Below are positions 1,916 to 61,612 of a DNA stretch of 64,000 nt, piece after piece; the stretch's first letter is position 1; every line of letters begins with the position of its first letter. The notes under the pieces were generated by a model. It was not told the DNA's origin and did not search any database. It worked only from the letters and a program-made list of their open reading frames with translations. The DNA comes from Candidatus Argoarchaeum ethanivorans. GTDB taxonomy: Archaea; Halobacteriota; Methanosarcinia; Methanosarcinales; EX4572-44. Made by a program: the position numbers and the translations under genes. Where the stretch lies: contig CAJHIS010000002.1 of the NCBI GenBank assembly GCA_905067555.1, positions 3,900 through 67,899 of the forward strand, read 5' to 3'.

Positions 1916-3225
1916 TGGTCATTTCTTCTTTTCATTCTATCTGTATTCATCGGGACAAGAGATATGGTCTTATCATGATCTGCCAGTAACTTCTCGATAC
2001 CAACTGCCTTGTATTCATCAGCCGGGTCCAGTTCCAATTGCAACTGGCATTCATCGCAATTTCTATCGCAAAAAGTTGGTTCATAAGAATCAGGCTCTTT
2101 GTACGAGGTGATGACCCCTTCATAATTTCTCAGGATGACTTTGTTGGTGGACCATGATATCAAATACTGAGGCGTAATGCGGATCTTCCCGCCCCCACCC
2201 GGCGCATCGATCACATACTCTGGTACGGCAAAGCCGCTCGTGTGCCCGATCAGGGACTCGATGATCTCTATACCCTTACCAACAGGGGTGCGGAAATGAG
2301 TCAATCCCTCAGATAGATCGCATTGATATAAGTAATAAGGTCTGATTCTGTTTTGAACCATTTTTTGCACCAGTTTCTTTATCAGTATGGGGCAGTCGTT
2401 CACGCCTGCCAGTAGGACTGATTGGTTACCAAGTGGTATCCCTGCATCTGCCAGCATACTGAGCGCTTCTCTTGAAGAGGCTGTCACCTCTCGTGGGTGG
2501 TTGAACTGGGTATTGATCCATATTGGATGGTGTTTTTTGAGCATATTTACCAGATCATAGGTTATACGATAAGGCAGGACTACAGGCATTCTGGTTCCTA
2601 TCCTGATCACCTCGACATGCGAAATCGTCTGTAGCTCGGTAAGAATCCAATCAAGATAGTCATCTGATAACATCAGCGGGTCTCCGCCCGAAAGCAAGAC
2701 ATCCCTGACCGCGGGTGTGTTTTTGATGTACTCAATCCCTTTTAGTACCTCAGATCTGTTCGGAATAGAATCCACATCGCCAACTCGCCGCTTCCGTGTA
2801 CAATGACGGCAGTACATGCCACAGATATTGCTTATGAGAAAGAGTACCCGATCCGGGTATCTATGGGTGATTCCCGGGACCGGACTGTCTGTATCCTCCG
2901 CGAGCGAGTCTTTTATATCATATTTACTAATAATCAATTCACGAGGGTCAGGAAATGCCTGTATAAATATCGGGTCATTCTTGTAGTCATCGAAATCGAT
3001 CAACGATAGGTAATAAGGAGTGATAGAGAGCGGGAATTTTTCAAGAACTTTTTCATAGACCTGTTTCTCTTCTTCATCGAATTTGATGGAGGTAATATCT
3101 TCAAACGTATCGATATCCTTTATGGCATGGCTCAATTGCCATTTATAGTTCTTCCAGTTAGAATGGCTCGCATCGTCTGCTATTGTTTCAGAAATTTCCT
3201 TCTGTTTTTCAGTATATATTTCCAT
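1912..3225 (-). CDS. ablA: Lysine 2,3-aminomutase (radical SAM), AblA/KamA
   Basis: 437 aa with the radical-SAM motif [12 protein letters not shown] and KamA-like regions ([13 protein letters not shown]). Confidence 0.9.
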
Positions 3226-3683
3226 TTGTTCACCTTCTGTTCGAGATTATATGATTTTATCTTAATTTATATATTATTTCAAAATTAATATGAATATCAT
3301 TTTTTTCGTCGTGTTTAAATACTACATCCCCATACGAGCCAAGATCCAACATAATCATTCAAAATCAAAGGTGTTTGTTGATCCGGGCTCTGCACAGTCT
3401 GTCTTAGTACTAAAATTGCCTGGCTTAAACTGGTTTTTTCAGAGTTAAGGGTTTAACATCGAGTTCCCCGGTATCTTTCAGTGCTTAAAATTCTTGATAT
3501 GTATCTTATTGAACGCCATATACAGCTACTGCTAAATGGCTTATCACATATAATTTATTCCCCAGCTATAGACTGCAAACTCCACTGGTTGTTATATTTA
3601 CCTATCTGATCTCTGCCATCCTTTTTTCGTTTGGCTGTTCCTGAAACAACTTTATTAATAAACAGAATACAACATGCTGTAAC

Positions 3684-3965
3684 ATGAAGAAATGCGTGCA
3701 TATATTTGTCCATGGTCTTGTGCAGGGTGTGTGTTTCAGAGCCTACACAGAGAAGCAGGCAATGAATCTCAACCTCACAGGCTGGGTGCGGAATCGAAGG
3801 GATGGGCGTGTTGAAATAATGGCAGAAGGAAGCGAACCAGAGCTTAAAGAGTTTATAGACTGGTGCAGCGTCGGAGCTCCACACTCACGCGTCGATACTG
3901 TAGATATATCATGGGTTCAGTGTGAACAGGATTTTAACACATTTGATGTGACTCAAACCAAATAG
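3684..3965 (+). CDS. acyP: Acylphosphatase
   Basis: 93 aa with VHGLVQGVCFRAYT and GWVRNRRDGRVE, typical acylphosphatase signatures. Confidence 0.85.
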   Translation: MKKCVHIFVHGLVQGVCFRAYTEKQAMNLNLTGWVRNRRDGRVEIMAEGSEPELKEFIDWCSVGAPHSRVDTVDISWVQCEQDFNTFDVTQTK

Positions 3966-4003
3966 GAATAATAATAGAGAGCTGCTCACGTTGTGTGCGG
4001 TTC

Positions 4004-4022
4004 TGCACAACGAAGTTGTGCA
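4004..4022. repeat. Palindromic hairpin repeat, type A (tgcacaac-gaa-gttgtgca)
   Basis: Perfect 8-bp arms around a 3-nt centre, just downstream of the acyP stop. The same sequence recurs at many other intergenic sites in this window. Confidence 0.85.
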
Positions 4023-4126
4023 GTTTGAAGAATATCCCCTAAGTAGCCGCGCACGAATAACCTGAACATTTAAGGTAATATATCTCGAAACTACTTCCTG
4101 CCAACCCATTTCATCACAAAATTAAC

Positions 4127-4163
4127 AATCTCCGTGTCTCTCCGTGTACTCTGTGGTTTAATC
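4127..4163 (+). repeat. 10-bp-phased CTNGTG motif cluster (aatctccgtg tctctccgtg tactctgtgg ttt), site 1 of 4
   Basis: Three phased units followed by a T/A-rich run. The last unit is one arm of an 11-bp inverted repeat, ctctgtggttt (4149-4159) / aaaccacagag (4199-4209). Similar clusters occur at 15611, 31361 and 49681. Confidence 0.6.
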
Positions 4164-4351
4164 TATAAGATAATTTAAATAATATATCCTGAGAAATAAA
4201 ACCACAGAGGCAGAGAAAAGATGGATCAATCACACAATCAGGAGATTGAACTGTGACGACATCACAGGAGATCAACAACTTTATACATTATTACAATACA
4301 ATAGCTTGTGACAGAACATCCAGAATGCTGATACATGAAAGTCAAGTTAAA

Positions 4352-50639: not shown

Positions 50640-51779
50640 TCACCTCAGCATATATTCATCAATATTCTTTTCCACCATTTCTCTCTTTCTTCTATGCTCT
50701 TTGAGATAATTATTAACTTTTTCTATGAAATATTCTTTAAGTTCTCCTGTTAACATGCTTCCGTCTCTGTAATCCTGTGCTATTTGTGCAAGTTTCCTGT
50801 CGTCTTCCTCAAAGAAATACTTTAAATAAAGAAAAGATACGTCTACATCCGGGTCGCCTCCTTTTTCCCTGTGTTCTTTGATGCTTGGCTGTCCACCCGA
50901 AAATGCATATTTATGTACCTTACTGGCAACTGCATCTTCATCATCACTCAGCCATATAGCATTATTTCCACTGGAACTCATTTTCGGCCCTTCAAGCCCT
51001 GGTGCCAATTTTTTGTGAATTGCAGCCGGCTTTTGAAAGCCAAACCTCTCTGCTATATCTCTTGTCAGCCTCATAAATGGATCCTGGTCTATCCCTATCG
51101 GCACTAACGTTTGATGGGACCCCTCTATAAATTGTGGGTATAGTATGTGTGCTGCCTGCATCGCTGGATAAAATACCCATCCAATGTTATTTTCCGGTTT
51201 CAATCCAAAAACAGCTTTTGCTGTAGAGTATGTGATCTTCTTGGCAACCTGTGAAGCGTACCTGTATATTTTTGTGTGCTCGAAATCCTTGTGAACGATC
51301 GTTTTCTCCGGATCAAACCCCATTGCCAGTATATCCAGTATATTATCATCTGCAAATCTTTCCACATCCCCAACGTTTAGATACTCCTTTATATAGAATT
51401 TCTCGTCGTCTGATACAGGTATGTACACCGTGCATCCATACGCATCCTGGAAGTATTTTGGTATAGCATATAGAGTCAAATGTCCTATATGCATTCTCTC
51501 GGAGGGCCCTCTCCCACTAACTACAGAAACCTTTTCTTTGTTATCGTAAGCATTAAGCCATTTATCCAGATCCCTGTGAGAAAAACACATACCCCTTTTA
51601 ACAGGAGGCGGCAGCGGCAGCTTCAATCTTGAAAACAGATGGTTATCTATAGACTGGGTGCCAAATTCTTCTATCAACCTATTATAGTCAATATCCCCCT
51701 CGACTTCCCATGGAGTTATAGACATATAATTAGCATCCTCTCCGTTCTGAAGAACAGAGAATTCGTGAGGTTTTTCCAT
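50640..51779 (-). CDS. trpS: Tryptophan--tRNA ligase (archaeal/eukaryotic type)
   Basis: 379 aa with HIGH-type MHIGHL, KMSSS and N-terminal PWEVEGDIDYNRLIEEFG. Confidence 0.88.
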   Translation of the reverse strand: MEKPHEFSVLQNGEDANYMSITPWEVEGDIDYNRLIEEFGTQSIDNHLFSRLKLPLPPPVKRGMCFSHRDLDKWLNAYDNKEKVSVVSGRGPSERMHIGHLTLYAIPKYFQDAYGCTVYIPVSDDEKFYIKEYLNVGDVERFADDNILDILAMGFDPEKTIVHKDFEHTKIYRYASQVAKKITYSTAKAVFGLKPENNIGWVFYPAMQAAHILYPQFIEGSHQTLVPIGIDQDPFMRLTRDIAERFGFQKPAAIHKKLAPGLEGPKMSSSGNNAIWLSDDEDAVASKVHKYAFSGGQPSIKEHREKGGDPDVDVSFLYLKYFFEEDDRKLAQIAQDYRDGSMLTGELKEYFIEKVNNYLKEHRRKREMVEKNIDEYMLR

Positions 51780-52030
51780 TATCTATAAACCCTACTTCTT
51801 TTGTCCACTCTAAAAACCAAGATTACATCATCTTCTTGAATAACCCTATAAAGCATCCTAAAATCTCCAATTCTGATCCTATAAACATCCCTTTCTCCCT
51901 TTAATTTCTTAACATCATAAGGAAATGGATCATTCTGGAGTTCCTTTATTCTTTTAAAAATTCTTTCTTTGCTACCATTTTCTAATTTTGATAGAAACTT
52001 TAGGACTTTTGTTGCAAATTCTACCTTCAT
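51779..52030 (-). CDS. relE: RelE/ParE-family type II toxin
   Basis: 83 aa with ...YRIRIGDFRMLYRV..DDVILVFRVDKRSRVY. Its stop overlaps the trpS ATG by 1 nt (TAATG). Confidence 0.8.
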   Translation of the reverse strand: MKVEFATKVLKFLSKLENGSKERIFKRIKELQNDPFPYDVKKLKGERDVYRIRIGDFRMLYRVIQEDDVILVFRVDKRSRVYR

Positions 52031-52299
52031 AACTCAAGAATTCTTTCAGCATCTTCTAAAGAGGTTGTTTTACCTGTGGCATACTCTCTCATGGCTTCGT
52101 TTAAATCTGCTTTATCCTCTTCGCTTAGTACAAGCACGTATTCAGATAATATCTCTTCCATGTTCTTCGTCCTCTTATTTAATTCATCCAGATCATGCTT
52201 CAATAAAAGCAATCCTTCCAATTTTTTATTAATATTCCCTAATATTTGTTGAACTTCGCCACTCATGGCTTCATCCCCCAGAAGGCACACTACTGCCAA
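52027..52299 (-). CDS. Putative antitoxin of the RelE module
   Basis: A small acidic helical protein that overlaps the toxin start by 4 nt. The likely start is MSGEVQQ at 52266. Confidence 0.6.
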   Translation of the reverse strand: MAVVCLLGDEAMSGEVQQILGNINKKLEGLLLLKHDLDELNKRTKNMEEILSEYVLVLSEEDKADLNEAMREYATGKTTSLEDAERILEL

Positions 52300-52351: not shown

Positions 52352-52612
52352 CTATTCCTCGCTCAGACTCTCTGCAAGTTCGGTATCAATTATTATATAG
52401 TCCCTGGCTGAGCGTACTGATGCAAAAGGTATGTACATAATATTACCTTTCATTTTGAACTTGGTATCAGTGGCATGGTTTGGCTTTACTACCAGGTCTT
52501 TAAGTTCACCAGTTTTAGTATTTATTATTATATTTACAGCTGTTCCAAGTTCCACTCCATCCATGCTGGTTACAGATTTACGAGACATACTTTTTGCAAA
52601 TACTTTTTCCAT
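52352..52612 (-). CDS. PRC-barrel domain protein
   Basis: 86 aa with V.S.DG.ELG......I...TGE...LVV, a PRC-barrel pattern. Confidence 0.7.
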   Translation of the reverse strand: MEKVFAKSMSRKSVTSMDGVELGTAVNIIINTKTGELKDLVVKPNHATDTKFKMKGNIMYIPFASVRSARDYIIIDTELAESLSEE

Positions 52613-52624
52613 GTTTTCTTCCTC

Positions 52625-55447
52625 TTATCTGTATCCTATATATGATTTTTGTTCTTTTGGTTTACCGCCTTTAAACTGGTCTTTGAGGCGTTCATAGTAA
52701 TCCATTATGTTCTCTGCAAGACTTGGGCGTACTTTTTTGAGTGCTTCTCTGAAGTGTTCCATTTCTATTTTTTCCGTGTTTATATTTTCTCTTAAAGCCA
52801 ACATTACTGCTTCTCTGCAGACTGCCTCTATGTCTGCTCCCGTATAGCCCTCTGTTACCTCTTTAAGCTCTTCGAAATCAACATCACTTGAAAGCGGTGT
52901 GTCTCTGGTATGTATCTTAAATATCTCAAGACGTCCTGTTTTAGATGGTGATTCAAGCAGCACCATTCGATCAAAGCGTCCGGAGCGTATTAATGCAGGG
53001 TCTATAATATCAGGACGATTGGTGGCTGCTATGATAATCACATCTTCAAGTACTTCAAGACCATCAATCTCAGTTAGCAATTGGTTGACCATTCTTTCAG
53101 TTGCTCTGTTGGTTTCGCTGCCACGTACCTGAGCTATAGCATCAATCTCATCAAAGAAGATAATCGATGGCGAGACCTGTTTTGCTTTTTTGAATATGTT
53201 TCTAATGGCCTTCTCAGACTCTCCCATCCACTTGGATAGCAGTTGTGGTCCACGTATGCTGATAAAATTGGCTGCTGTCTCGTTTGCTACCGCTTTTGCA
53301 ATAAGTGTTTTGCCTGTACCGGGAGGTCCATAAAGGAGAATTCCTTTTGGTGGGCGAATACCCATTTTTTTGAATTTTTCAGGCTGTGTAAGTGGCCATT
53401 CAACCGTTTCAAGTATTTCCTGCCGTACTTTTTCGAGACCGCCAACGTCCTTCCATGTGTTTGTTGGAATTTCAATCAGTGCTTCCCGCATGGCTGATGG
53501 TTCAACTTCTTTTAGTGCATCATCAAAATCCTTTTGTACAACTCTCATGCTTTCAAGAAGCTCTTTTGGTATTTCTTCATCAAGGTTTATCTGTGGAAGG
53601 TATCTGTGCAGTGCATTCATCGCTGCTTCTTTGGCAAGGGCCGAAACATCTGCACCAACAAAACCATGTGTTGTTGAGGCGAGGTGGTCTAACATGGCGG
53701 CTGTTGAGTCTTCAATGACCTTTTTGATATATTCTGGCGAGACCACATTTAGGTCTAACAGTGTCTCTTTGATTTTTCGTATTTTTTCGTCCTTTTGTTG
53801 TAGTATTTTATCCGGAAATGTGTTTCTGATGTCTTCAGGTTCTCTGATGCTTTTAATGTGTTTGATTTCGCTTATGTCTGCTGCTATGGATTCTAGTATG
53901 CTTTTTTTCTCTTTTATTGCTTCATTTATTTCATTGATAGCAGCTATGTCTTTCTCCAATTTTTTAATATCGTTTTTATTATTCTCTATTTCTTTTTCTA
54001 AATCTTCAATCCTGGATTTCAGATGCTTTATCTGACCCTGCTTATTACTTATCACACTTAAAATTCTCTGAATTAACGGACCTTCAGCCTTTACCCTCTC
54101 CTCCTCCAATCTCTCAAGTTCACCTTTAATCTCCTTTAACTCACGCTCAATATCACTCTTCTCCAATTCAAGAGACTCTATCTTAGAAATATTCTTAGAG
54201 ATGCGCACAGTAGAATTTTTCTCAAAAGATGATAGTTCCTCCAAAAGCACCTTTGCTACAACATCCTTTTCCCAGTGATAAATAGGCATCCCTTGCGTGT
54301 GTATCTGGAATATTTCTTTTCGTTCTTCTCTATTAGGCACGCCGATTTCTATTTCACGATCAAATCTGCCTGGTCTCCGAAGTGCAGGATCTACTGCATC
54401 GATTCGGTTGGTAGCACCGATTACCACCACTTCTCCCCGTTCCTCAAGACCGTCCATCATCGTTAGAAGCTGAGCCACAACACGCCTCTCTACTTCACCT
54501 GTCACTTCTTCTCTTTTTGGTGCTATTGAATCGAGCTCGTCTATGAAGATTATGGCTGGAGCATTCTGGCTTGCTTCTTCAAATATTTCACGCATGTTAT
54601 GTTCGCTCTCGCCATAGTATTTGGACATTATTTCAGGTCCTGCTATAGATATAAAATGTGCACCAGATTCGTTCGCTACCGCCTTTGCAATAAGTGTTTT
54701 GCCTGTGCCGGAAGGCCCATGTAGTAGAATACCTTTTGGAGGCTCAATGCCAAGTTTGTTGAATATCTCGGGGTGTTTCATCGGCAGCTCTATCATCTCA
54801 CGCACCCGCTGTATTTCTTTACTTAAGCCGCCGACGTCTTCATAAGTTATGCCAGTAGCCATGCTTTCAAAACCACTAATGGGCTTTTCATGCAGTATCA
54901 GCTCTGTTTCACTGGTGATTAATACTACTCCATCCGGCACTGTTTCTGCAGCTATAAGAGGTATAGCTTGTCCTGTTACTACTCGTCCAAGGAAAGGATG
55001 TTCCATAGTGCTCATCACAGGTATTACATCACCTCTGGCTATCGGTCGCTTCAATACTTGTTTTTTAACCATCCCGGGAGCGTCCCCGCCAAACTGAATT
55101 CTTGCACCCTCGGTTGGGGCAAGTACTACTTTTACTGCATCATGAACATCGGCTTTTTGCACTTTGACAACATCACCAATACTTGCTTCAGCGTTCTGTC
55201 GTATGAATCCATCTACACGGATAGTCCCCTGGTCCCAGTCTGTTCTATCTGCTCGCCATACTTTTGCACCAGTGATTTTTTTACCCACTATTTCGATGAT
55301 GTCTCCAGGCGAAAGCTTGAGGGTGAGCAGGGTCTGGGGATCAAGTCTTGCAATACCTCGACCTGAATCATTTGGATATGCTTTTGCAATTTTAAGTTTA
55401 ATTTGTTGAATATGGCATTCCTCCTGAGATGTAAATATATAACTCAA
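52625..55447 (-). CDS. cdc48: CDC48/VCP-type AAA+ ATPase with a coiled-coil insertion of about 195 aa in the D1 lid
   Basis: 940 aa with an N domain, D1 ([12 protein letters not shown]), D2 ([12 protein letters not shown]) and a charged heptad-rich insert between IHTQGMPI (about aa 388) and THGFVGAD (about aa 593). Confidence 0.9.
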
Positions 55448-56387: not shown

Positions 56388-56948
56388 TTATCTTACTGCC
56401 GACAACGCTGTTATAATCATTTCTTTGTATCTTGTCAGATCTGTTTGATAGTGTGCTGATGCCTGCCTGGCTACTGGATTCTCTTTATCATTGAGTCGTT
56501 GTAGTGTCTGATGTGCAGTATCTACTATCCACTGGTCTATGGTGTCCTCTTCGATTACCTGAATTGTCTCAGGTCGCACAGACGTCATAATTGCTCCTTC
56601 TGGTGTAGTGTAGATGTTCGGTTTGCCGATAACTGCTACAAAACCTGGCGGTTCTATTCTAACGACTGCATCTGCTGCTTCCTGTTGATACTGCCCTGCA
56701 TATATGAAAAACGCTCCTGTTGGGTCAGTGATCCTGGCTCGCCAGTATTCTGTTTCATTCCCGATGTTCTCTTTTTCTATCAGGGTGCCGGTGATGTAGA
56801 GTCTGTTAATCCTGGCTCCTGTTTGCGTAATAAGGTATTGTTTTGAGTACTGGTCATCTTCTTCTTTGTATGTGAGGTTTGATTCCTGCAGTTCTTGCGC
56901 AAATATGCGTTTTGCTGGTTCTCGTACATATTGCAGATTTTCTTCCAT
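56388..56948 (-). CDS. RPA-associated protein (COG3390, OB-fold; RPAP)
   Basis: 186 aa whose start abuts the stop of the upstream rpa gene, the same operon layout as haloarchaeal rpa-rpap pairs. Confidence 0.7.
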   Translation of the reverse strand: MEENLQYVREPAKRIFAQELQESNLTYKEEDDQYSKQYLITQTGARINRLYITGTLIEKENIGNETEYWRARITDPTGAFFIYAGQYQQEAADAVVRIEPPGFVAVIGKPNIYTTPEGAIMTSVRPETIQVIEEDTIDQWIVDTAHQTLQRLNDKENPVARQASAHYQTDLTRYKEMIITALSAVR

Positions 56949-58262
56949 TTACAACGCCTCCTCGTTCGTGTTTTTGGATTGCTCGATTGCTACGCAATCG
57001 AGAGTTGAGTGTGTAGTGCTGCCCTCTGTTTGCGTTGTATGCAGTTGTGATAGAAGTTCATCCACTGCCTCTTTTGTTATCTTTGGTAATGCTTTTATCT
57101 CACTCACTATCAGGTGTCGATCAATCTTTGTTCCGATTATTGTATAATATCTACCGATGATTTTTGATTTTATTCTGTCTGTTACTATGTTGTGATCAAG
57201 TGCTTCTATTGCCATGTCTTTTGCTTCAACGAGAGTTATGTTTGTTAGTTCTTCGCTCAATTCTTTGTTTATGATAGCTTCCTGTGTGGTCTTACCATCG
57301 TCTATCACAGCTTTTATCCGAAGATCGTACACACCTTCGACCTTGCCGTGTTCAGTACAAACTCCTTTAGCTAGTGCCCTGTTGCATTCCGGACATCTTT
57401 TTATCAGTCCTGAGCCGTTTTGCACGTCAACGATAACACCTGTAAATTCTGCTGTTTGGATGCTTACTTCCACATCTTCTTCTATTTCAGTGATGCTTGT
57501 CGCTTTGTTCAGTTTTATACTATATCTGCCCTGCCAAACATCTGTTACTGCACTCTCTATTAGATAGGATTTGCCTTCCTCCAATGGTTCAGGAATTGTT
57601 ACTCCCTGAAATATGGTAAATCTTATAATTCCAGTTTCATCTCCAACAAGACCTACCTGAACAATAGATTCATTGTTTGCATCCCACAATTGAGTGACTT
57701 TTACCCTAAGAGTTACCCACTGCCCTTCCTGATTTATATCCTGTATGGATATGATATCGCCAGTGCCTACTTCCACATCTTCTTCTATTTCAGTGATGCC
57801 TGTCGCTTTGTTCATGTTTATCTGGTATTTGTCCTGCCAAACACCTGTTACTGCCGTTTTTACCAGGTAGGATTTGCCTTCCTCCAATGGTTCAGGAATT
57901 GTTACTCCCTGGAACATGGTAAATTTTATAATTCCAGTTTCATCTCCAACAAGACCTACCTGAACGATTGATTCATTGTTTGCTTCCCACAATTGGACAA
58001 CTTTTACCTTGAGAGTTACCCACTGCCCTTCCTGGTTTATGTCTTGTATAGCTGTGATGTCATTTGTAGAACCAGCATAGTACTGGCTTCTATCAATATC
58101 ATGTTCTTTCAGAAAATAATTAACCACGCTTCGTTTAGCTTCTCCAATTGGCACTTTAAATTCACTCGTTAGTTTCTCAAGTCGTTCCCCAGTTTCCTTT
58201 TCAGACAACTCTACTCCAAGTTGTGAAAACCGATTTACTATTTCTTGAACTGTATTTGACAT
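56949..58262 (-). CDS. rpa: RPA ssDNA-binding protein: two near-identical tandem OB folds plus a zinc-finger OB fold
   Basis: 437 aa. Residues 72-165 and 173-266 are near-identical repeats, followed by CPECNRALAKGVCTEHG. The C-terminal tail is encoded by a type B hairpin repeat. Confidence 0.85.
   Translation of the reverse strand: MSNTVQEIVNRFSQLGVELSEKETGERLEKLTSEFKVPIGEAKRSVVNYFLKEHDIDRSQYYAGSTNDITAIQDINQEGQWVTLKVKVVQLWEANNESIVQVGLVGDETGIIKFTMFQGVTIPEPLEEGKSYLVKTAVTGVWQDKYQINMNKATGITEIEEDVEVGTGDIISIQDINQEGQWVTLRVKVTQLWDANNESIVQVGLVGDETGIIRFTIFQGVTIPEPLEEGKSYLIESAVTDVWQGRYSIKLNKATSITEIEEDVEVSIQTAEFTGVIVDVQNGSGLIKRCPECNRALAKGVCTEHGKVEGVYDLRIKAVIDDGKTTQEAIINKELSEELTNITLVEAKDMAIEALDHNIVTDRIKSKIIGRYYTIIGTKIDRHLIVSEIKALPKITKEAVDELLSQLHTTQTEGSTTHSTLDCVAIEQSKNTNEEAL
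56981..57001. repeat. Type B hairpin repeat (ctcgattgctacgcaatcgag) inside the 3' end of the rpa CDS
   Basis: Read directly from the sequence. It encodes ...STLDCVAIEQS... near the C terminus. Confidence 0.85.
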
Positions 58263-59524: not shown

Positions 59525-61612
59525 ATGTCTGCACATTCATCACCACAGAAGTGGAAAGAATTCTTAAAGTCATCCTACAAAGATGAAATTACCAATCTTG
59601 CTGAAGAGTATCCTGATGTTAGAAGTCTTAGTATATCTTTTTTTGACATAGAACAGTTCGATCCGGAACTGGCAGATGAACTTCTAAACTTCCCGGATGA
59701 GGTGCTAAGAGACGCCAAACAAGCACTACTTGATATTGGTGATACGAAAGGAGTTGATTTTTCAAAAGCTCACCTGCGAGTAAGAGATCTTGCATCACAC
59801 GTTCGGATACGCAGCATTCGAAGTAATCATATCGGAAAACTGATTGCGGTTGAAGGGTTGATTCGAAAAGCTACTGAGGTACGCCCAAAGATCACCCGTG
59901 CAGTATTCCACTGCCCTTATGAACACGAGACAGTGGTTATGCAGGGTGAGAAATTCGTAGAGCCTTATGAATGTGATGATGCCAACTGCTCCCGAAAAAA
60001 AGGACCTTTTATTCTCTCGAAAGAAAAATCCACTTTTCTGGATGCACAAAAGATTCGCATACAGGAATCACCGGAAGGTCTTAGAGGTGGTGAGCAGCCG
60101 CAGACACTCGACGTTCTTGTAGTTGATGACCTTGCTGGAATAACTGCTCCCGGGGATCGCATAATTATTACAGGGGTGCTTCGCTCTTACCAGCGCGTAA
60201 ATTACAACACCAAAACCACATTCTTTGACATAGTGCTTGATGGCTTATCCATCGATGTGGAAGACAAGGAATTCGAGGATATCGTACTATCATCTGAAGA
60301 CATTGAAATGATAAAAACTCTTGCCGCTGACACCGGGATTTATGAGAAAATGATACGAAGCATAGCTCCGAGCATCTATGGCTACAGTGAAGTAAAAGAA
60401 GCAATATCCCTTCAACTGATGAGCGGTGTATCCAAGAAACTTCCGGACGGCTCACGGATCAGAGGTGATATTCATATACTGCTTATCGGAGACCCTGGCA
60501 TTGCAAAATCACAGCTTCTACGATACACTGTCAAAATTGCACCCCGTGGTATTTATACAAGCGGTAAAAGCTCAACATCGGCAGGGCTTACAGCCGCAGC
60601 AGTAAAGGATGAATTCGGAGATGGACGATGGACTCTTGAAGCCGGTGCATTAGTACTTGCAGATAAAGGAATTGCAGGTGTTGATGAAATGGATAAAATG
60701 AAGCCTGATGATCGTGCATCACTGCATGAAGCAATGGAACAACAAACCATAAGCATAGCAAAGGCAGGAATAATGGCGACCTTGCAATCCCGCTGCTCGC
60801 TGCTTGGTGCTGCAAACCCGAAATATGGACGCTTTGACCAGTATGACAACATCGCCAAACAAATAAACATGCCGCCAACACTTCTGTCGCGATTCGACCT
60901 GATATTTATTCTTACGGATAAGCCAACGATAGAACGAGACACGCAAATATCCAATCATATTTTAAAAGCACATTACGCGGGTGAACTTAGCATGCAGAAA
61001 GAACACGTCCCAAACTCAGGCATAACCAGTAAGCAGATAGAACATGCAATGAAAGTAATACAGCCAGAAATAGAGCCTGAACTGATGCGAAAATATATTG
61101 CCTACGCCAAACGCAACATTTATCCTCTTATGAGCGATGATGCCAGGGAAAAAATCATCAACTTCTATCTTGGACTCAGGAAACAGGGGGAAGACCCCAA
61201 TTCACCAGTTCCGGTTACTGCAAGGCAGCTTGAAGCTTTAGTAAGACTTGCAGAGTCGAGTGCACGTATCCGCCTGAGCAATGAAGTAAATGTAGATGAC
61301 ATAGAACGAGTGATACGCATAGTAACCACAAGCCTTGAGCAGGTGATGACAGACCCGGAGACTGGTATGCTTGATGCCGACATTATTTCTGTTGGTACAA
61401 GCAAAAGCCAGAGAGACAAAATACACATACTTAGAGATATAATAAGAGAGCTTCAGCATGCACATGATGGTGTAGCACCCCGTGAAGATGTGATAGAGCA
61501 TGCAGAAGAACAAGGTATTAATAGAGACAAGGTGGAAGACATACTATCAAAACTTAAGAACTCGGGAGAAATATACGAGCCTAAAAATGGATACGTTAAA
61601 ATATCGCAATAA
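59525..61612 (+). CDS. mcm: MCM replicative helicase
   Basis: 695 aa with Walker A GDPGIAKS, Walker B DEMDKM, the arginine finger SRFDL and a zinc motif in the N-terminal domain. Confidence 0.93.
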   Translation: MSAHSSPQKWKEFLKSSYKDEITNLAEEYPDVRSLSISFFDIEQFDPELADELLNFPDEVLRDAKQALLDIGDTKGVDFSKAHLRVRDLASHVRIRSIRSNHIGKLIAVEGLIRKATEVRPKITRAVFHCPYEHETVVMQGEKFVEPYECDDANCSRKKGPFILSKEKSTFLDAQKIRIQESPEGLRGGEQPQTLDVLVVDDLAGITAPGDRIIITGVLRSYQRVNYNTKTTFFDIVLDGLSIDVEDKEFEDIVLSSEDIEMIKTLAADTGIYEKMIRSIAPSIYGYSEVKEAISLQLMSGVSKKLPDGSRIRGDIHILLIGDPGIAKSQLLRYTVKIAPRGIYTSGKSSTSAGLTAAAVKDEFGDGRWTLEAGALVLADKGIAGVDEMDKMKPDDRASLHEAMEQQTISIAKAGIMATLQSRCSLLGAANPKYGRFDQYDNIAKQINMPPTLLSRFDLIFILTDKPTIERDTQISNHILKAHYAGELSMQKEHVPNSGITSKQIEHAMKVIQPEIEPELMRKYIAYAKRNIYPLMSDDAREKIINFYLGLRKQGEDPNSPVPVTARQLEALVRLAESSARIRLSNEVNVDDIERVIRIVTTSLEQVMTDPETGMLDADIISVGTSKSQRDKIHILRDIIRELQHAHDGVAPREDVIEHAEEQGINRDKVEDILSKLKNSGEIYEPKNGYVKISQ

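Follow-up and report, generated by a model that had tools for sequence, protein, structure and literature searches.

The CDC48 gene in the 64,000-nucleotide stretch of Candidatus Argoarchaeum ethanivorans DNA analysed here (the window) encodes a long extra segment in the first AAA module (D1) of its product. This raises the question of whether the segment is a genuine part of the unfoldase, and what it may do there.

The host unfoldase and the borders of the insert

The gene occupies 52625..55447 on the minus strand and encodes 940 aa, its stop codon lying at 52625-52627. Because it opens with TTG and no ATG is found nearby, the exact start is uncertain. The preliminary description had named the product CDC48/VCP, and the ORF list, Pfam, TIGR01243, phmmer and Foldseek all agree with this. 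Pfam recognises CDC48_N, CDC48_2, two AAA and two AAA_lid_3 domains. The score against TIGR01243 (CDC48) is 1010 bits for a cut-off of 802.65, residues 16-926 covering profile positions 2-730; the top PDB sequence match is VAT (5g4f, phmmer E=1e-247), and the full-length structural model matches p97/VAT folds in Foldseek. The N domain (residues 17-191; 54875..55399, minus strand, as are all features below) consists of the double-psi barrel and the beta-clam, matched by CDC48_N (17-100, E=1e-28) and CDC48_2 (118-191, E=4e-13). It is followed by the D1 alpha/beta subdomain (residues 200-388; 54284..54850; Pfam AAA 240-369), which ends in GMP388 and contains Walker A (GPSGTGKT, 244-251), the pore loop (SKYYGESE, 275-282), Walker B (IIFIDELD, 299-306) and, within the same coordinates, the arginine fingers (RPGRFDRE, 358-365). 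The D1 lid, the small alpha-helical subdomain, together with the D1–D2 linker spans residues 580-660 (53468..53710; Pfam AAA_lid_3 and AF2), and the D2 module with the C-terminal tail spans residues 661-940 (52628..53467; Pfam and motif positions), with Walker A at 707-714, the pore loop SKWMGESE at 738-745 and Walker B at 762-769. Walker, pore-loop and arginine-finger motifs are complete in both AAA modules, the second set of fingers reading RSGRFDRM. HbYX-type C-terminal motifs of archaeal Cdc48 serve in docking to the 20S proteasome; the C-terminus here, ...SYIGYR, does not vary within the clade; its penultimate residue is the Tyr, but a Gly stands at the ‘hydrophobic’ position. Judged by its sequence, the gene encodes an intact, motif-complete CDC48/VAT unfoldase of the GoM-Arc1 clade, which has in common with VAT, archaeal Cdc48 and p97 the N domain, the two AAA rings, the Walker and pore-loop motifs, the arginine fingers and the penultimate Tyr.

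What sets the protein apart is how the D1 alpha/beta subdomain is joined to the lid. In VAT and p97 the linker at this place has about 14 residues (one residue more in VAT, by the phmmer alignment), whereas the window protein has 205 there, predicted to form a hairpin on a helical base. The short linker of solved TIGR01243 members is thus lacking, which leaves the family membership unaffected. Homologue linker lengths and DNA comparison with a plain positional orthologue (L001) place the variable region between GMP388 and H594, at residues 389-593 (53669..54283). Among 118 close homologues, the segment from GMP to HGFVGAD measures 14 aa in 97 and 114-240 aa in the remaining 21, and in VAT and human p97 the corresponding segment is likewise about 14 residues long; the net insertion is 191 aa (205 against the canonical 14). 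The excess of about 190-200 aa over archaeal CDC48/VAT and the short canonical linker proposed in the preliminary description are both borne out by these counts, and the range that it gave, 53687-54280, translates exactly into residues 390-587, between IHTQGMPI and the next motif. In the phmmer comparison with PDB chains, query residues 16-393 align to VAT 7-380 and 581-922 to VAT 382-724, leaving about 187 residues without a counterpart in 5g4f. In the DNA, the region takes up 615 bp in the window and 42 bp in L001, and identity in the flanks stays at 92% as far as each border of the indel; the plain 14-residue linker can be written LGEDVDIDAMIDKM. The preliminary description was correct as to the size of the insertion and its position along the protein; it does not lie inside the D1 lid, however, but at the junction of the alpha/beta subdomain and the lid, upstream of the first lid helix. 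That helix (582-592) is itself a sequence variant linked to the insert allele, as seen from the AF2 helices and the allele-linked linker sequences.

Predicted architecture and maintenance of the hairpin

The insert is rich in charged residues (40% D/E/K/R) and has a strong 3.5-residue hydrophobic periodicity across residues 414-532, consistent with the heptad-like coiled coil suggested from the outset. Structure prediction of the monomer gives a confident antiparallel hairpin, both in the AF2 model of the full-length protein (helix 394-453, turn 454-456, helix 457-513; pLDDT 76-88) and in that of the insert by itself (pLDDT 84 overall, 87-98 in the hairpin). The first predicted arm (helix 394-453; 54089..54268), which is also marked by heptad periodicity and conserved columns, leads to a tip made of A454-E455-G456 and followed by P457 (54080..54088), where both the AF2 turn and the length changes in homologues are centred. 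The second arm (helix 457-513; 53909..54079) and its continuation (helix 515-529; 53861-53905) are likewise delineated by AF2 and heptad periodicity. A C-terminal base module (residues 530-579; 53711..53860) is recognised from AF2 and from the invariant columns of A2 and A5, two alignments of the insert; it is made up of a loop modelled with low confidence (530-536) and of short helices at 537-550, 554-565 and 571-579. As modelled, the module has a conserved base of helices, to which its N-terminal end contributes about 25 residues and its C-terminal end about 75, and an antiparallel coiled-coil hairpin as its distal part. Each arm has approximately 60 residues, and the predicted hairpin would be roughly 85-90 A long, a figure derived from standard helix geometry and not from model coordinates.

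Conservation is concentrated in the base rather than in the distal coil in the insert alignments. The first 20 or so residues of arm 1, including F408, belong to the conserved base, and W392 just precedes the arm. In the C-terminal part, the motifs R.(E/F)EDIRN.F and GV(V/I)S..Y.KKVIE are conserved, as are D539, F544 and S570 (A2, A5). These motifs and W392, F408, D539, F544, S570 and S581 are retained in hosts down to 43% identity.

Alignment with VAT and its relatives shows that the segment is not shared widely within the subfamily, and it has no known structure. No Pfam or NCBIfam model matches it above cut-off, no solved structure with a counterpart was found, the PDB chains among the Foldseek matches listed being only 712-761 residues long, and the literature searched does not describe it. 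In structure, the insert model is matched best by SMC/Rad50, the dynein stalk, HP0958 and CT398, which share with it the generic long antiparallel hairpin, and the Foldseek matches to coiled-coil arms all have E > 0.02. In NCBIfam, the ASRP model scores 32 bits for a cut-off of 300, and SMC and Rad50 models 17-25 bits for cut-offs of 567-1087. Homology to SMC/Rad50-type arms, coiled coils that link the halves of an ABC-ATPase head, was rejected because these scores are far under the cut-offs, and the resemblance is one of generic coiled-coil geometry and composition.

Among homologues, the insert ranges from 100 to 226 residues; the deletions behind the shorter variants are nested, with the predicted tip at their centre. 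The short forms of 100-101 aa retain the base only, the distal coil being almost gone; one short-form protein measures 838 aa in all. In the longest form, 14-residue tandem duplications are present in both arms, mirrored about the tip, with scores of 39 and 34 against a maximum of 31 and a mean of 12 in shuffled sequences. A search for DNA repeats detected no tandem repeats behind the length variation, and these were rejected as its source. Length changes keep the two arms matched, and the combination of arm-matched duplications and tip-centred deletions implies selection for keeping a paired hairpin. The mirrored heptad duplications are a natural example of compensatory evolution preserving an antiparallel coiled coil. 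The dN/dS ratios also show purifying selection on the insert: for pairs at informative divergence they are 0.15-0.24 in the insert and 0.02-0.05 in the flanks, a constraint about five-fold weaker than on the core. Insert and flank distances correlate (r=0.88), which indicates that the module has been inherited together with the CDC48 gene; with distances that co-vary in this way, there is no support for the insert having spread laterally among lineages in recent times.

Allelic states at the CDC48 locus

DNA-pattern scans recovered the insert, with the reading frame kept, from 10 species-representative genomes of GoM-Arc1/Argoarchaeum and Methanoperedens as well as from several metagenomes, and an exhaustive profile search added diverged homologous inserts, at the same site, in CDC48 proteins that are only 43-56% identical, one of them from a Pacearchaeota. 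Together, these two approaches define the distribution given here. Word-indexed searches with the insert alone or with a diverse insert profile returned nothing or a single protein (P0126), despite the presence of inserts about 90% identical in the database; we take these misses to be a limitation of the method, the candidates presumably having been filled by generic coiled-coil proteins.

Positional orthologues that are about 93% identical have the plain 14-residue linker, and in every lineage plain alleles are found 5-10% away in the flanks. The insert is therefore optional, the same locus in close relatives having a plain linker. Directly downstream of CDC48 lies a gene for a PRC-barrel protein of 86 aa (52352..52612; Pfam PRC E=3e-9, synteny), which adjoins the CDC48 orthologue in every allele state. 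The downstream order is common to plain, D1-insert and D2-insert forms, being PRC-DTD2-FtsZ-radical SAM in Methanoperedens and PRC-TrpRS in GoM-Arc1. For the loci examined, the possibility that plain and insert forms are two paralogues of one genome was rejected because they have the same downstream genes. Allele-bearing contigs reach 171 kb, with no break at the CDC48 gene. Synteny comparison revealed no neighbouring partner gene that co-varies with the insert, the PRC-barrel gene being kept with and without it. At the corresponding hinge of D2, unrelated insertions are found in sister alleles and also in the protein P0121.

For the pair formed by the window and L001, we rejected the view that the plain allele arose by a recent simple deletion, as the 14-codon linker is no subset of the insert allele. 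The homologous part of the linker reads EDVDIDAMIDKM in the plain form, and its 15-residue counterpart in the insert allele is far more diverged from it than are the 92%-identical flanks. Over the 12-15 codons beside the indel, only about 40% of residues are common to the two alleles, against a DNA identity of 92% elsewhere in the gene. One could imagine from this, tentatively and with the chances clearly against it, that Cdc48 independently evolved a regulatory or adaptor arm resembling the middle (M) domain of Clp/Hsp100 unfoldases, and that the arm has been kept as a long-lived, single-locus presence/absence polymorphism across Methanoperedenaceae. Under that polymorphism both alleles would be old and the remainder of the gene homogenised within each lineage, and the old, diverged indel borders in an otherwise homogenised gene would point to balancing or conflict-driven selection on recruitment or control of the unfoldase.

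Possible roles of the arm

In the phmmer alignment, query residue 389 corresponds to p97 390 and G386 to p97 N387, so that the insertion begins three residues past the N387 equivalent. In p97, N387 touches R155 of the N domain in the ‘down’ state, and an R155C/N387C disulfide, which holds the N domain in one plane with D1, inhibits ATPase activity (PMC3318706). If the position of p97 N387 is a guide, the six arms of a hexamer would come off the D1 ring at its outer rim, beside the N domains. Six projecting arms, as a platform for adaptors or substrates or for oligomerisation, were already suggested in the preliminary description and are plausible. The conserved base may then serve as the functional anchor, and the variable hairpin as a projection that sets its reach, with the arm recruiting a partner or adaptor, setting the N-domain/D1 conformational equilibrium, or both. 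That the insert is such a peripheral docking or regulatory arm, analogous but not homologous to the middle domain of ClpB/Hsp104/ClpC, is a proposal whose chances we put at about even. Against it stand the absence of a co-varying partner gene among the neighbours, the dispensability of the insert in nature, its approximately five-fold weaker constraint and the free shortening of the distal coil.

M-domains of ClpB, Hsp104 and ClpC dock Hsp70 or MecA and repress or activate the motor. By analogy, they are the best functional comparison for the insert, both being coiled coils inserted into the first of the two AAA modules of an unfoldase with a double ring, with peripheral exposure presumed for the element described here. 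The two differ in several respects. The window insert has no sequence or fold relationship to the M-domain, and its host is a classical AAA protein, not a member of the Clp/Hsp100 group; no ClpB, Hsp104 or ClpC chain was among the best 50 Foldseek matches to the insert model, and none at E<=1e-3. The M-domain of ClpB is inserted within the small subdomain, whereas the window insert sits at the hinge, upstream of the first lid helix. The M-domain is a two-winged coil, in contrast to the single long predicted hairpin of the insert, which is optional among orthologues. Coiled coils are also found on other archaeal or actinobacterial AAA unfoldases, the N-terminal coils of PAN, Rpt and Mpa/ARC being landing sites for substrates or adaptors (reviewed in PMC5476697 and PMC7226402). 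Those, however, are N-terminal, parallel, formed by two subunits and situated above the pore, unlike the window insert, an intramolecular antiparallel hairpin inside D1 that would lie at the rim.

Another possibility is that the insert is a tolerated passenger, the hinge being a permissive surface at which a coil expands and shrinks almost neutrally by slippage or recombination in heptad-coding DNA. Presence and absence at one locus among close relatives, the variation in length, the constraint relaxed relative to the flanks and the unrelated insertions at the D2 hinge would all fit this. We nevertheless consider it unlikely, given dN/dS ratios far under 1, motifs and single residues conserved to 43% host identity, and the selection for a paired hairpin implied by the arm-matched duplications of 14 aa and the tip-centred deletions. 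The position next to the N387 equivalent suggests a further alternative, in which the base wedges into the N–D1 interface, blocks the ‘down’ state and thereby tunes the basal ATPase as well as the unfoldase activity, the hairpin being incidental. Such a pure gate of the N domain, for which the inhibitory R155–N387 lock of p97 provides a precedent (PMC3318706), would be in line with conservation lying in the base and with the 100-101-aa forms that retain nothing else, but it seems rather unlikely because the paired arms are maintained and long hairpins are retained in most lineages, suggesting that the coil matters. Distinctly unlikely, in our view, is a device for higher-order assembly, whose arms would pair between hexamers or neighbouring protomers, building a lattice or a state for storage or rest. 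In its favour, prediction gives a long amphipathic hairpin, placed at the periphery of the ring, and the p97 dodecamer entries 7wub and 7vcu are among the Foldseek structural matches. Precedents are known in the M-domains of the ClpC resting decamer and in p97 double hexamers. However, free length variation and the almost complete loss of the distal coil fit poorly with a lattice contact in which geometry is critical.

An artefactual or selfish origin of the insert, be it by chimeric assembly, as an intein or as recent mobile DNA, is exceedingly improbable in spite of its sharp borders and a GC content falling to 0.31-0.33, because at least 10 species have the insert in frame in assemblies independent of one another, and because it co-diverges with its host gene, has a GC3 (0.37) equal to that of the flanks (0.32) and shows neither a Hint/intein domain among Pfam matches nor splice-junction residues. 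The similar GC3 values imply that the low GC stems from a K/E/I/N-rich composition. A chimera is further contradicted by the 96% DNA identity across the gene between the window and Argoarchaeum Eth-Arch1, and mobile DNA by GC3, co-divergence and the outcome of the search for DNA repeats at the insert, which found none, either flanking or in tandem. Inteins are recognised by a Hint domain, an N-terminal Cys/Ser/Thr, a C-terminal His-Asn and a nucleophile at +1. The insert begins with I389-Y390 and ends in ...KKVI578/E579, with no Hint or LAGLIDADG domain among its Pfam matches, and an intein was rejected; a real one was recognised in a Pacearchaeota CDC48 locus (L018), as a positive contrast. 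Split genes were also rejected: proteins ‘starting’ at MP(I/L) are a gene-calling artefact in L018, caused by its upstream intein, and the apparent split in L011 is due to a 13-bp duplication. A duplication of 13 bp at the junction is recorded for NJEL02000003.

The insert is a real, optional accessory domain of CDC48, to which analogy would assign the role of a docking or regulatory arm. Control of Cdc48/p97 normally goes through the N domain and the C-terminal tail, and in the literature searched we found no description of an accessory domain built into D1 in this family. To our knowledge, proteostasis has essentially not been studied in the anaerobic ethane and methane oxidisers that are the hosts. 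Plain, 100-aa and up to 226-aa alleles exist at one locus in near-identical proteins and are ready natural controls that would allow an unusually clean comparison of structure and function, and an arm at the N–D1 junction would offer a natural way into the control of the D1 ring by N-domain position. If the proposed role is true, the arm would be a second, independent invention of the ClpB/Hsp104/ClpC principle, in which a peripheral coil couples partners to the motor.

The host protein and its coiled-coil module

The CDC48 gene of the window (52625-55447, minus strand) encodes 940 aa whose Pfam matches are CDC48_N, CDC48_2, two AAA and two AAA lid domains, the extra segment having no Pfam match. 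The protein scores 1010 bits against the NCBIfam CDC48 family model TIGR01243 (cut-off 803). Its top phmmer match among all PDB chains is VAT (5g4f), split into two pieces (query 16-393 with VAT 7-380, query 581-922 with VAT 382-724), and about 187 query residues are without counterpart in any solved CDC48, VAT or p97. Together these matches bear out the CDC48 assignment of the preliminary description. Since the Walker A/B motifs and arginine fingers are complete and the aromatic pore loops KYYG (D1, the first AAA module) and KWMG (D2, the second) are intact, the protein looks like a working unfoldase.

Positions 53687-54280 correspond exactly to residues 390-587, following IHTQGMPI, where the extra segment had been placed. 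Among the 120 best homologues, gathered and aligned, 97 proteins have 14 residues between GMP and HGFVGAD, 21 have 114-240, and the window protein has 205 (net insertion 191 residues). Human p97 likewise has 14 residues there (query 389 aligns with p97 390 and query 586 with p97 396 in phmmer), so the canonical length is conserved from archaea to humans. The expectation of a short canonical linker was therefore right, and the alternative that the segment is a widely conserved subfamily part of known structure fails, because 97 homologues have the plain linker and the module is without a solved structure.

The insert is 40% charged, with strong 3.5-residue hydrophobic periodicity over residues 414-532. 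In a full-length AlphaFold2 model (44-sequence alignment, mean pLDDT 77) it is predicted to form a helix at 394-453, a turn at A454-E455-G456 and a helix at 457-513 extended by another at 515-529, followed by a low-confidence loop, short helices at 537-550, 554-565 and 571-579, and the first lid helix at 582-592. Hairpin pLDDT is 76-88 in this model and 87-98 in an insert-only model of unchanged topology; the coiled coil first read from the sequence is upheld by charge, periodicity and both models. Foldseek gave no PDB match to the insert at E<=1e-3, the top matches being generic antiparallel coiled coils (Smc5/6, Smc arms, dynein stalk, HP0958). The full model matched p97 and VAT chains, which at about 720-750 residues are all too short to hold an insert counterpart.

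Independently of the model, the alignments also support the hairpin. Shorter natural variants, with net inserts of 165-167, 154, 128 and 100-101 residues, differ from the window protein by nested deletions about the predicted tip; the 904-aa form has a 24-residue deletion, with ten residues gone on either side of the tip, and in the shortest forms the arms are down to about 23 and 27 residues. At 963 aa (net +226), the longest form carries one extra 14-residue block per arm, the two being mirrored on either side of the tip and each a tandem copy of the block beside it (self-similarity at offset 14 scores 39 and 34, where 300 shuffles averaged 12 and never exceeded 31). Such paired two-heptad duplications would be expected if selection keeps the antiparallel coiled coil matched. 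The 891-aa variant is less symmetric than the others and may be re-registered.

Distribution and selection

When one genome per species was scanned for the pattern, the insert turned up in 10: Ca. Argoarchaeum ethanivorans Eth-Arch1 (insert 95% identical), GoM-Arc1-GOS, Methanosarcinales archaeon ex4572_44, and seven assemblies sharing the Methanoperedens-type locus, of which five are labelled Methanoperedens (the Ca. M. nitroreducens ANME-2d type genome among them), one 'Methanobacteriota archaeon' and one 'uncultured archaeon'. The whole gene is 96.2% DNA-identical between window and Argoarchaeum contig. As the insert is in frame in independent assemblies from different samples, the chimeric assembly that the preliminary description wished to exclude is excluded. 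GC falls to 0.31-0.33 across the insert, but with GC3 of 0.37 against 0.32 in the flanks the dip reflects K/E/I/N-rich composition rather than foreign DNA. In three Methanoperedens loci insert GC3 is markedly below that of the flanks (0.24 vs 0.47 in L009, 0.39 vs 0.54 in L013, 0.28 vs 0.44 in L014), unlike in the GoM-Arc1 genes.

Only seven matches came from an exhaustive profile search against 1.84 billion representatives, a lower bound because plain cluster representatives (with the 14-residue linker) stand for most insert-bearing proteins. They include full-length CDC48s 43-56% identical to the window protein, with a homologous insert at the same site: the divergent P0121 (1022 aa), P0123 (954 aa) and P0124 (888 aa), and P0126 from a Ca. 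Pacearchaeota archaeon. The database entry of P0126 starts at MPIEHW because gene calling was upset by a LAGLIDADG-type intein, which lies in D1 of this CDC48 beside the coiled-coil insert (L018 ~2703-4200, JACOYM010000027.1; borders …GPEIM|CVDGETPIL … FLMHN|SKFYGESE). A word-indexed protein search with the insert alone missed known proteins with about 90% identical inserts, probably because generic coiled-coil words saturated the candidate list, and negatives of such searches with low-complexity queries are not to be trusted.

Conserved positions are concentrated at the module's base, which consists of some 25 residues N-terminally (IY.WE.D...L.E...SFEK.S) and some 75 C-terminally (R.FEDIRN.F ... 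GV(I/V)S..Y.KKVIEDS....L..LAS.T). W392, S570 and S581 never vary, and F408, D539 and F544 hardly do, the four proteins from the profile search included. At informative divergences, dN/dS (Nei-Gojobori) is 0.15-0.24 in the insert and 0.02-0.05 in the flanks, which indicates purifying selection, about five-fold relaxed. Protein distances of insert and flanks correlate (r=0.88), the insert evolving 2-3 times faster, so the module has co-diverged with its host gene rather than spread recently between lineages. In four close pairs (window/L006, window/L007, L009/L010, L014/L015) the insert has diverged 2.4-4.3 times less at synonymous sites than the flanks (e.g. 0.042 vs 0.135), possibly through codon-usage effects or more recent shared insert ancestry, and insert dN/dS climbs to 0.4-0.8 on very few substitutions.

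Exit point and possible function

Window residues G386-M387-P388-I389 align with p97 N387-M388-K389-L390 (phmmer). Joining R155C to N387C by a disulfide fixes the p97 N domain in the plane of D1, with inhibition of the ATPase, and N387H is one of the p97 mutations found in disease (PMC3318706). By this alignment the insert starts on the outer D1 rim, three residues past the equivalent of a residue touching the N domain in the 'down' state, and six arms would radiate from that rim. The anatomy is that of a peripheral coiled coil within the first AAA module of a double-ring unfoldase, its conserved base lying beside a regulatory interface and its distal rod differing in length between variants. 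The best explanation, in which our confidence is evenly balanced, is that it works as a docking or regulatory arm in the manner of the middle domain of ClpB/Hsp104/ClpC.

That domain, which docks Hsp70 or MecA and gates the motor, is the closest likeness in presumed way of working. Membership of its family was nevertheless rejected, since Pfam and NCBIfam revealed no sequence similarity, the top 50 Foldseek matches included no ClpB, Hsp104 or ClpC chain, the host AAA clade differs, and the ClpB domain is inserted at another point.

The strongest argument against any specific function is that the insert is so readily dispensed with in nature, and it could be a tolerated passenger; set against purifying selection, deeply conserved base motifs and compensated arm-length changes, the strongest arguments for function, this is unlikely. 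The arm could also be purely a gate of the N domain, near which it would emerge; we consider this rather improbable. That the arms assemble hexamers with one another is decidedly doubtful. An artefact or selfish element is hardly credible for a segment recurring in frame and co-diverging with its gene. A full-text literature search of incomplete coverage found no description of a coiled-coil insertion in archaeal Cdc48, and no Pfam or NCBIfam model covers the module.

Gene surroundings and alleles of the locus

The PRC-barrel gene (52352-52612, minus strand; 86-87 aa across loci) always directly follows the CDC48 orthologue (window, L003-L005, L009-L015, L020), and in Methanoperedens, genes for a DTD2-like tRNA deacylase, FtsZ and a radical-SAM protein come next. 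A link between PRC-barrel proteins and FtsZ-based archaeal division has been described, and these surroundings are possibly a functional neighbourhood. Between PRC-barrel and tRNA synthetase genes the window has an 83-aa ParE-family toxin (Pfam E=2.5e-11) with an upstream 90-aa putative antitoxin (51779-52299, minus strand); the pair is absent from Eth-Arch1 (L006) and GoM-Arc1-GOS (L007), and the plain locus L001 has only a 61-aa antitoxin-like ORF. Upstream of CDC48, a 437-aa protein (56949-58262, with 56388-56948, minus strand) contains two near-identical repeats of about 100 residues (…IQDINQEGQWVTL.VKV.QLW.ANNESIVQVGLVGDETGII…) that look like RPA-type OB folds; its GoM-Arc1-GOS homologue has been called with just 336 aa and may therefore lack one of the repeats. 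Next comes a gene of MCM size (59525-61612, 695 aa), which corresponds to the MCM called in locus L002.

In many Methanoperedens alleles of the orthologue (831 aa; P0099, P0102, P0110; L005 7001-9496), an unrelated insertion of about 94 residues (…NEPFVFNWDNVPGND…), not coiled and without Pfam match, lies between IHLKN and L(A/S)DDVN, the D2 hinge structurally equivalent to the D1 insert site; the tree of flanking sequences places one or two plain sequences within this group. Besides its D1 insert, P0121 (L019 198-3266) has about 95 residues inserted at the D2 hinge, where two CxxC pairs (CRKC…CKKC) resemble a zinc ribbon. In both rings the hinge loop seems to be a hot spot at which accessory domains are gained. 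In ex4572_44 (L011 1914-1939, NJEL02000003.1) a perfect 13-bp tandem duplication (GTAGGGGCATGCC twice), exactly at the 5' border of the insert, splits CDC48 into two ORFs, the first of 392 aa with …IHSRGMP* as its end. This may be a real frameshift, or else an artefact of scaffolding where the assembly graph branches; the latter would be a hint of plain and insert alleles coexisting in that sample.

Among the closest relatives of the window protein, P0005 (737 aa) and P0006 (710 aa) are plain, each 93% identical to it with gap columns left uncounted, and P0005 occupies the same genomic place, followed by the same PRC-barrel and class-I tRNA synthetase (TrpRS-like) genes. Methanoperedens has three forms in one context (CDC48-PRC-DTD2-FtsZ-radical SAM), namely with the D1 insert (P0011), plain (P0068, P0069) and with the 94-residue D2 insertion (P0110). 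For the loci examined, paralogues are ruled out by the shared gene context, and the forms are structural alleles of one orthologue. Insert-bearing sequences make up at least five groups in the flank tree; every group has a plain relative at a distance of only 5-10%, against up to 29% to other insert-bearing groups. Against L001 the window has 615 bp in place of 42 bp, with identity of 91-94% up to both borders. A simple deletion does not account for the plain linker, of whose alignable part (EDVDIDAMIDKM) only about 40% of residues are in common with the insert-allele counterpart, and linker type follows allele state, not lineage (…KM or …DRT in plain, …LAS.T in insert forms). Both allele classes therefore seem old, and as the remainder of the gene looks homogenised within lineages, this suggests either that a polymorphism has persisted for long alongside recombination or that alleles have been replaced repeatedly.
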